Below are positions 4,779 to 6,102 of a stretch of 64,000 nucleotides of DNA, piece by piece. The notes beneath the pieces are model-generated. The model ran no database searches. It had not been told where the DNA came from and saw nothing but the letters and a program-made list of their open reading frames with translations. Each line of letters opens with the position of its first letter. Within the stretch, counting starts at the first letter, position 1. Where the stretch lies: assembly GCF_053078305.1 (NCBI RefSeq), contig NZ_CP166879.1, one strand, 5' to 3'. A program made the translations under genes and the position numbers.

Positions 4779-5861
4779 TTACCCGAGCACGCCAGTCGCA
4801 AAGGCGTGATCAAGAAAACGAAAAATTAACTCAATCTGAGAGCCGTACTTTTTCTCAAACTCCAGCGGGTCTGCATGAAGTTCGTTGTGGTGCTCCCGGC
4901 ACAACGGTAGCGTGAAAATATCGTGGGCCTTTGTCCCCATTCCCCCCTGACCATGACCAATCAGGTGATGCGGATCGTCAGCAGGCTTACCACAACACGC
5001 ACACGGCTGTGTCTTTACCCAGCGCGTGTATTTCTCATTAACCCAACGGCGACGTTTAGGCCGCCTCATGAACGATTCAGGAGACTCCGGATCAACGGCG
5101 ATACTGACAACCGTTTTTTTCTGTGGTGGATTTTGTTGCTGGTGGACGTGAAGTGGCAGCGCAATATTTTTTGTGCGCTGCTTCAGTATGCTGATGGCTG
5201 TCTGTTCTCCCGGTACGATGTCACTCTCACGGTATACGGAGCGGATTTTTTCCGCTGGTAATCCCAGCGAACGACGCGCTACTGCCTCAGGTAGTGCATC
5301 CACCACCTGATTGCAGGCCGCCCACCAGGATAATTCGGCCAGCGATAACTCCCTCTCCTGCGTGCCGCTTATTGCGTGACGGATGACGTCAATCATCCAG
5401 GCAACCAGATTCTGCTGAGCAAGTTGATCGAGTGATTCTGATGTCTGGTCGCGCAGCTGGTTGTCACAGTGCCAGCACAACACCATCGCGCCGGTACCGT
5501 AACGGTGAATGACGGTTTCGCTGTGATGATAATCGCCATGTGGCCACTGGCAGGATTTCACGTGACGTAATAACCAGTCAGACAGCGCACCAGCACCGCC
5601 AGCGGCACGAATCACCCGTTCATTGCTGAAAAATGGCAGTAATGATTTATCCTCAGCCAGCGGCTGGCAAACGACAGGAACAACCCCGGACGGCAAACTC
5701 CGCATGCTTTTGGGTTCCGGCTCCACCAGCACCCTGCCGCGATGAAAAACCGGCAGTAATTCGCGACCAGGCTTAATGACCACCAGGCCAAGTTCCGGGA
5801 CCAGAACAGGTCGAAGTAATACCCGCACATTATCTCCAGACACGCTGACGGTAGCAGGCAT
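4779..5861 (-). CDS. YdfU-like DUF968 protein with C-terminal HNH-like zinc motif
   Basis: 360-aa ORF; C-terminus CACCGKPADDPHHLIGHGQGG...CREHHNELH; true start may lie downstream because of overlap with the preceding ORF. Confidence 0.6.
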   Translation of the reverse strand: MPATVSVSGDNVRVLLRPVLVPELGLVVIKPGRELLPVFHRGRVLVEPEPKSMRSLPSGVVPVVCQPLAEDKSLLPFFSNERVIRAAGGAGALSDWLLRHVKSCQWPHGDYHHSETVIHRYGTGAMVLCWHCDNQLRDQTSESLDQLAQQNLVAWMIDVIRHAISGTQERELSLAELSWWAACNQVVDALPEAVARRSLGLPAEKIRSVYRESDIVPGEQTAISILKQRTKNIALPLHVHQQQNPPQKKTVVSIAVDPESPESFMRRPKRRRWVNEKYTRWVKTQPCACCGKPADDPHHLIGHGQGGMGTKAHDIFTLPLCREHHNELHADPLEFEKKYGSQIELIFRFLDHAFATGVLG

Positions 5862-6102
5862 TTGTTCGTGGCAGATGTGCGCGAACAGGAAGATATACAG
5901 AAACGGTCCAGGTCAGACGATCAACGTTCAGACTCCGCTCCACACGGACACCGCGACGCAGATACGCCTCTTGAAGCATATCTGCCTCATCGGTCGTACA
6001 GAACAGATAGTGAAACCAGCCATACTGAGGCGTACGAAAACGCCACCCCCGCTTAATTTCCGGGTCGGCTTCAGAATTGTGGGATTTTATGTGTTGTGTC
6101 AT
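5830..6102 (-). CDS. Hypothetical nin-region protein (90 aa)
   Basis: ORF overlapping the start of the DUF968 gene; same position as rem in Qin; no recognisable motif. Confidence 0.3.
   Translation of the reverse strand: MTQHIKSHNSEADPEIKRGWRFRTPQYGWFHYLFCTTDEADMLQEAYLRRGVRVERSLNVDRLTWTVSVYLPVRAHLPRTNACYRQRVWR

Follow-up and report, generated by a model that had tools for sequence, protein, structure and literature searches.

The HNH assignment of DUF968 proteins, among them YdfU of Escherichia coli K-12, is already known. In 2014, Curtis et al. described a zinc-finger HNH motif in DUF968 proteins, together with fusions to recombination proteins (PMC4118853). In 2016, Kaur and Subramanian predicted a nuclease function for the YbcO/DUF1364 family and drew a link to Ref and HNHc_6 (PMC4999995). 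In 2017, Jablonska et al. placed both DUF968, naming YdfU, and DUF1364 in group 7 of the His-Me fingers, within one superfamily with YbcO (PDB 3G27), pointed to RusA and Q as neighbouring genes, and suggested a role in recombination or repair like that of NinG and Ref (PMC5714182). More recently, in 2026, the HNHc_6 protein Gp16 of phage ΦNM1 was reported to nick plasmid DNA, bind RecA, be toxic and promote phage propagation, with its functional residues lying in a CxxC motif (145-148), a C-R-E-H motif (181-184) and at H157, H185 and H189 (PMC12817073). For YdfU itself, we found neither biochemistry in the literature nor a published assay of any YdfU-type protein. A first-pass annotation of the locus described here, which held that no function had been established for YdfU-like proteins, is correct as regards YdfU itself and understates the HNH assignments published in 2014 and 2017 as well as the 2026 work on Gp16.

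Here we analyse a DUF968 gene in a 64,000-nucleotide stretch of contig NZ_CP166879.1 (assembly GCF_053078305.1), referred to below as the window, and compare it with these relatives. K-12 Qin YdfU (b1560; PF06147; PHROG 96) belongs to the same family and has the same length of 349 aa and the same two-domain layout, a GTG start located 1 nt past the stop of an ORF of about 90 aa, and a position just before Q; it differs in that DNA identity over the 5' end of the gene is about 80% and that no rusA lies between ydfU and Q. ΦNM1 Gp16 is the nearest relative with biochemistry, and is encoded among phage early and recombination genes with RusA in the same region. P1 Ref (PDB 3PLW; RecA_dep_nuc) carries a disordered basic N-terminus of 76 residues, in contrast to the folded domain of 222 residues found here, while DLP12 YbcO is a single domain of about 96 aa that has no N-terminal domain and for which biochemistry is likewise lacking. 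Lambda NinG/Rap, an HNH-type branch-specific endonuclease, shares an analogous position in the nin region and the proposed role, but belongs to a different Pfam family (PF05766).

The gene is set in the nin-type region of a lambdoid prophage, where the order in the direction of transcription is hok/sok, a BOF/YgiW/YdeI-family gene, a 90-aa ORF, the DUF968 gene, rusA and the antiterminator gene Q, all on the minus strand (Table 1). The last four are tightly packed: a single base separates the 90-aa ORF from the DUF968 gene, rusA starts 12 nt past the DUF968 stop, confirming the adjacency to rusA that had been read from the sequence at first pass, and the ATG of Q overlaps the stop of rusA as ATGA. 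A terminator-like hairpin after the BOF gene marks the 5' boundary of this block. Several clinical isolates of E. coli O serogroups carry the block with 97.6% identity, and 4622 of the 5426 complete genomes of E. coli match some part of the region. At the closest E. coli locus, RefSeq labels the four genes "hypothetical protein", "DUF968 domain-containing protein", "RusA family crossover junction endodeoxyribonuclease" and "bacteriophage antitermination protein Q".

Table 1. Features of the DUF968 locus and its surroundings, in window positions; residue numbers refer to the 349-aa protein.
Feature	Position	Strand	Description and evidence
Second methyltransferase-like ORF	790-1725	minus	downstream of Q
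tRNA-Arg (TCT)	1811-1887	minus	downstream of Q
tRNA-Arg (TCG)	1901-1977	minus	downstream of Q
tRNA (CAT anticodon)	1987-2062	minus	downstream of Q
N6/N4 DNA methyltransferase gene	2103-3161	minus	downstream of Q
Antiterminator gene Q	3721-4410	minus	PF06323, E 5e-84; sequence; RefSeq annotation at homologous locus
rusA, Holliday-junction resolvase	4407-4766	minus	PF05866, E 1.8e-17
DUF968/YdfU-type CDS	4779-5828	minus	349 aa; GTG start 5828, TAA stop 4779-4781; Pfam, PHROG, RefSeq
C-terminal HNH (His-Me finger) domain	4782-5063	minus	residues 256-349
HNH core	4875-5003	minus	residues 276-318: C276-x2-C279 ... H287 H288 ... D303 ... C310-R-E-H313-H314 ... H318
Inter-domain linker, partly disordered	5064-5162	minus	residues 223-255; pLDDT <50 at 224-237
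N-terminal domain	5163-5828	minus	residues 1-222; AlphaFold pLDDT 92.5, pTM 0.79 (residues 1-224 alone)
HNH-like zinc module in N-domain	5451-5552	minus	residues 93-126: C93, H101, C118, C121, W119, D122
11-codon (33-nt) extension of longest ATG ORF	5829-5861	minus	outside the conserved protein
Small ORF	5830-6102	minus	90 aa, basic (pI 9.9), without known domain
GGAG Shine-Dalgarno for GTG start	5834-5837	minus	within last codons (W-R) of small ORF
Promoter-like site TGTACA-17-TACAAT	6152-6180	minus	upstream of small ORF; consensus scan only, 9/12 matches, which by itself is not evidence of function
Terminator-like hairpin	6187-6209	minus	after BOF gene; consensus scan only
BOF/YgiW/YdeI-family OB-fold gene	6225-6569	minus	secreted; signal-peptide-like N-terminus; between hok and small ORF
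Hok ORF	6691-6903	minus	PF01848
sok RNA	6841-7015	minus	Rfam RF01794, 117.7 bits
hok/sok	6691-7015	minus	complete type I toxin-antitoxin locus
Small nin genes	7137-9140	minus	DUF551, Ea22-like, DUF4406; upstream of hok

Around this block, the BOF gene looks like an accessory ('moron') gene, and in Qin its place is taken by rem. The small nin genes upstream of hok are joined by 4-nt start/stop overlaps and agree with the annotation of the E. coli homologue. The methyltransferase and tRNA genes that follow downstream of Q (790-3161) are laid out as is typical for EHEC lambdoid and Stx-type prophages in their late-promoter region. At the closest E. coli locus, the annotation marks the first methyltransferase as frameshifted, and a PemK/MazF-family toxin gene (L001, 1827-2171, minus strand) lies between Q and the methyltransferase. 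The ORFs at 3154-3737 of the window differ from that interval, indicating a mosaic breakpoint just downstream of Q. A search of the region for RNA elements and repeats returned only sok, which is part of the hok locus next to it, and gave no repeats of note.

The DUF968 gene is real and intact, and encodes a YdfU-type protein. Its product matches Pfam DUF968 (PF06147) with 259.3 bits against a cut-off of 27.8 (E 2.4e-77), over all 171 model positions (1-171), and PHROG 96, 'HNH endonuclease', covers it from end to end (residues 1-348). Across related loci, the 349-aa ORF is intact in 81 of 82, and the whole-gene pN/pS is 0.13. The minus-strand ORF ending at 4779 carries the motif CACCGKP...HHLIGHGQGG...CREHHNELH exactly as the first-pass annotation quoted it.

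The start of the gene had been annotated as overlapping the small upstream ORF by about 30 nt, which arises only if translation begins at ATG 5861, the start of the longest ORF (360 aa). We place the start instead at GTG 5828, because the junction TGGAG[G/A]-TAA-[C/T]-GTG, consisting of the stop of the small ORF, one base and the GTG, is invariant in all 82 related loci (first extracted from 80 related viral contigs and the window, then extended to 82 by a pattern search over the loci). Only 7 of 81 loci, all sharing the small-ORF allele of the window, have an ATG in frame 11 codons ahead of the GTG, and 2 others of the 81 have one 24 codons ahead. The GGAG lies 5 nt ahead of the GTG, and inspection of the sequence revealed no Shine-Dalgarno motif before ATG 5861. 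In full-length homologues of 28-58% identity, the initial Met aligns with the GTG column (N-termini MRALLKP, MNYLLTP and MKALLTP, compared with MRVLLRP here), and RefSeq uses the 349-aa form at the closest E. coli locus (97.6%), in a Qin-bearing strain and for MG1655 ydfU. On comparative sequence grounds, the protein is thus 349 aa long, the genes are arranged as stop, one nucleotide and start without overlap, and the apparent overlap is an artefact of choosing the start codon of the longest ORF. This stop-then-start geometry is typical for translational coupling, and the DUF968 gene is likely coupled to the small ORF.

The AlphaFold model of the full-length protein (mean pLDDT 89.9) consists of two domains joined by a linker that is disordered at residues 224-237 and varies in length and sequence across the alignment. 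In this model, the C-terminal domain has the beta-beta-alpha-metal core fold of the His-Me finger superfamily, with a near-invariant histidine at the catalytic position at the end of strand beta-1 (H288, which aligns with Gp16 H157) and candidate metal-binding histidines on the core helix (H314 and H318, the equivalents of Gp16 H185 and H189). Among 26 aligned homologues of 28-80% identity, the proposed zinc ligands C276, C279, C310 and C/H313 are kept in 26, 21, 22 and 21 sequences, respectively; the proposed general base H288 and the two proposed catalytic-metal ligands, H314 and H318, occur in 24 sequences each, and H287 (25/26) and D303 (26/26) are proposed to lie near the active site. The HNH core is also the most constrained part of the gene, with a pN/pS of 0.035 compared with 0.13 for the whole. 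The first-pass annotation had read the C-terminus as an HNH nuclease motif that loss of the catalytic His/Asn on alignment would have undermined; the reading is borne out, with zinc and catalytic residues retained in 21-26 of the 26 homologues and the histidine set in 24-25. The C-terminus is a well-conserved HNH/His-Me finger nuclease domain, for which we infer nuclease activity.

The core of the C-terminal domain is 41% identical to that of Gp16 over 59 aa (E 1e-10), the two share the motif CxxC...H...C-R-E-H-H-N-E-x-H, and every mutated residue of Gp16 has a counterpart here. The domain alone scores 26.1 bits against HNHc_6 (PF16784; cut-off 26.6), and many relatives at about 80% identity have a precomputed HNHc_6 match. 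Similarity to Ref is sub-threshold in sequence, both with the Pfam RecA_dep_nuc model (PF16786; 17.5 bits against 26.9, E 0.005) and with phmmer against 3PLW (E 0.55); nonetheless, 3PLW is the best structural match in the PDB. The DUF968 protein has no Pfam match to canonical HNH (PF01844), DUF1364 or NinG (PF05766).

The Pfam DUF968 match begins at residue 160 of the 349-aa form, leaving residues 1-159 outside the model. This N-terminal part includes a small module with a predicted beta-hairpin (105-110, 113-118) followed by a helix (119-125), in which the putative zinc ligands C93 (47/49), C/H101 (47/49), C118 (49/49) and H/C121 (49/49) are conserved, as are W119 and D122. Its pN/pS of 0.04 reflects a constraint equal to that of the true HNH core. 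We assign it with moderate confidence as a degenerate, zinc-binding HNH-like module that serves for binding and not for cutting, because the four zinc ligands are kept but the catalytic position lacks a conserved histidine (H102 in 21/49, H108 in 7/49). An internal duplication relating the N- and C-terminal domains was considered and is not significant (hhalign E 0.11, probability 0.5%), though the register fits the zinc ligands. A profile search of PDB sequences with the N-domain gave only chance matches to a halohydrin epoxidase (E 0.18), a Foldseek search of the BFVD viral structures gave nothing below an E of about 1, and the domain is not of the NinB/Orf-like type seen in HNHc_6 fusions.

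A set of database proteins (P0152, P0192, P0193, P0164, P0173, P0245 and P0136) joins a YdfU-like N-terminus, MRALLTPEIAPRMG, to tail-fibre, tip-attachment J, glycine-rich or portal sequences. We rejected these fusions as proof of an independent N-domain module, as they carry one identical N-terminal sequence with varying breakpoints; they are probably prophage deletion scars or chimeras of assembly or gene calling.

The small upstream ORF noted at first pass is a real gene that evolves under purifying selection: 77 of 82 loci carry it intact, in 53 distinct DNA alleles whose lengths vary in frame (89, 90 and 92 aa), and stops are always present in the other two frames across it. Its pN/pS is 0.32 overall, falling to 0.25 in a conserved C-terminal core of 65 residues and rising to 0.56 in the variable N-terminal segment of about 25. 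The protein, with a pI of about 10, matches only PHROG 1212 (function unknown), has no Pfam, NCBIfam or PADLOC match, and in a profile search retrieved 197 protein clusters, of which all species-named ones are Escherichia/Shigella and none holds a Pfam domain. The Qin version is 33% identical, of about equal length, and shares the C-terminal QQRIWR and the junction. In MG1655, the homologue (L085 307-585, minus strand; NC_000913.3 1644306-1644584) is an intact 92-aa ORF directly upstream of ydfU, with 1 nt from its stop to the ydfU start; nothing is annotated between ydfU and rem in the curated record, and PGAP calls the Qin-type small gene in other strains (WP_012304870.1).

The pairing reaches further than these close relatives in one case: contig L090 bears a 67-aa, core-only homologue of the small ORF (hhalign probability 99.3%) directly upstream of a 54%-identical DUF968 gene, and here the stop of the small ORF overlaps the DUF968 start as TGATG, with a Shine-Dalgarno arrangement that follows the same logic as in the window (GGAGGGACTGATG). 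The idea of the small ORF as a universal partner of DUF968 was rejected. The pairing is lineage-specific and not family-wide, because in homologues of 47% identity or less the upstream gene is an antirepressor gene, a DUF4406 gene or an unrelated 114-aa gene, with no small ORF.

Seven homologues of 32-54% identity were examined for genomic context, one of them on a contig too short to show its neighbours. Each of the remaining six is located in a phage early or replication gene region and/or directly ahead of Q or the lysis genes, and in four of these RusA is encoded next to the DUF968 gene or only a few genes away. On contig L087, from a distant relative, an IS605-type OrfB/TnpB gene (Cas12f1-like_TNB; 2412-3626, minus strand) directly follows the DUF968-rusA pair. 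Contig L088, from a related prophage, has a gene of the Acb2/Tad1-hairpin family, a family of anti-CBASS/Thoeris sponges (6639-6881, plus strand), just after the lysis genes and, beyond these, a separate canonical PF01844 HNH gene besides its DUF968 gene.

We propose that the DUF968 protein acts as an early-operon HNH nickase or structure-selective endonuclease on recombination and replication intermediates, and give this model as a whole, including the roles of the N-domain and of translational coupling, a probability of about 0.65. The 349-aa protein would be expressed from the early-right (nin) operon as part of the small ORF-DUF968-rusA-Q block. Its C-terminal domain of about 95 residues would be a zinc-stabilised beta-beta-alpha-metal nuclease of the DUF968/DUF1364 (YbcO)/HNHc_6/Ref group, in which C276, C279, C310 and H313 would hold a structural zinc, H288 is the candidate general base, and H314 and H318 on the helix would hold the catalytic metal, with H287 and D303 nearby. 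During lytic growth, the enzyme would nick or cleave recombination and replication intermediates of phage or host DNA, a niche that it may share with lambda NinG/Rap and with DLP12 YbcO, which lies next to RusA, and its activity may be RecA-dependent or RecA-directed, by analogy with P1 Ref and ΦNM1 Gp16. Residues 1-222, with their second HNH-like zinc module, probably bind substrate or a partner and may target the nuclease to DNA or RecA, taking the place of the disordered basic tail of Ref or the NinB-like domain of Gp16. Initiation at GTG 5828 is probably linked by translational coupling to the end of the reading frame for the 90-aa basic protein. That protein may itself be a partner, and coupling would probably fix the proportion of nuclease to small protein. 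A more specific form of the model, which we consider unlikely yet not negligible, holds that the inactive pseudo-HNH module positions the Ref/Gp16-like HNH domain, that the coupled protein of about 65-90 aa is its partner, and that the whole works as a RecA- or branch-directed nickase feeding RusA.

Other readings of the pair were weighed against this model. A small gene tightly coupled upstream of a nuclease gene is the usual layout of a type II toxin-antitoxin system, so that the two could form a toxin-antitoxin-like, exclusion or defence module in which the small protein restrains a toxin and the lysogen benefits; addiction modules do occur nearby (hok/sok here, relBE in Qin, the MazF-family gene in the closest E. 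coli locus), and the related Gp16 is toxic when expressed. We consider this improbable, given that neither the nuclease nor the small ORF has a PADLOC match, that homologues of 47% identity or less do without the small ORF, that a few loci combine a disrupted small ORF with an intact nuclease gene, which a toxin should not tolerate, and that the gene keeps its place between the replication genes and Q, as recombination genes do. About equally improbable is a non-catalytic, DNA-binding or regulatory zinc-finger protein built on an HNH-like scaffold. Some family members are indeed annotated as transcriptional regulators, the N-terminal module illustrates how the fold can lose its catalytic histidine while keeping the zinc ligands, and the very divergent homologues P0206 and P0228 are without the HH and H...H residues; the retention of H287, H288, H314 and H318 in 24-25 of 26 homologues, the constraint on the HNH core, the highest in the gene, and the importance of the equivalent residues in Gp16 argue against it.

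Two further possibilities would keep the nuclease but change its purpose. Free-standing HNH genes of phages often encode homing endonucleases, and the nin region is mosaic, with the DUF968 gene present in only some lambdoid phages, which is consistent with a selfish element inserted there. This we hold to be slightly less probable than the preceding two, since homologues across 32-97% identity retain the position and the integration into the operon, the gene is likely coupled in translation to the one upstream, Pfam finds none of the typical DNA-binding modules of homing endonucleases, and the closest relatives (Ref, Gp16 and YbcO) are not homing enzymes. HNH packaging factors are likewise widespread in cos phages, where a terminase-associated protein similar to HK97 gp74 is needed for cos cleavage and packaging, yet such a role is very improbable here: the gene lies in the early nin region, between the BOF/hok moron block and rusA/Q and away from terminase and portal genes, it has no PF01844 match, and L088 has a separate PF01844 HNH gene. 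An early-operon nuclease acting on recombination and replication intermediates is, in our view, the most likely reading.

The DUF968 gene of the window is a routine, catalogued member of a family that most E. coli genomes contain, and the corrected start, the conserved small gene coupled to it and the N-terminal pseudo-HNH domain usefully improve its annotation but are not discoveries. They nonetheless draw attention to a small, conserved, coupled gene of unknown function that is missing from the curated annotation of K-12 MG1655, and offer a testable hypothesis for a long-uncharacterised K-12 gene, namely that YdfU is a nickase similar to Ref and Gp16 that carries an additional pseudo-HNH zinc domain. 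If the two-module form of the model were true, K-12 Qin would hold an uncharacterised, Ref-like programmable nuclease together with a partner gene that is unannotated in MG1655.
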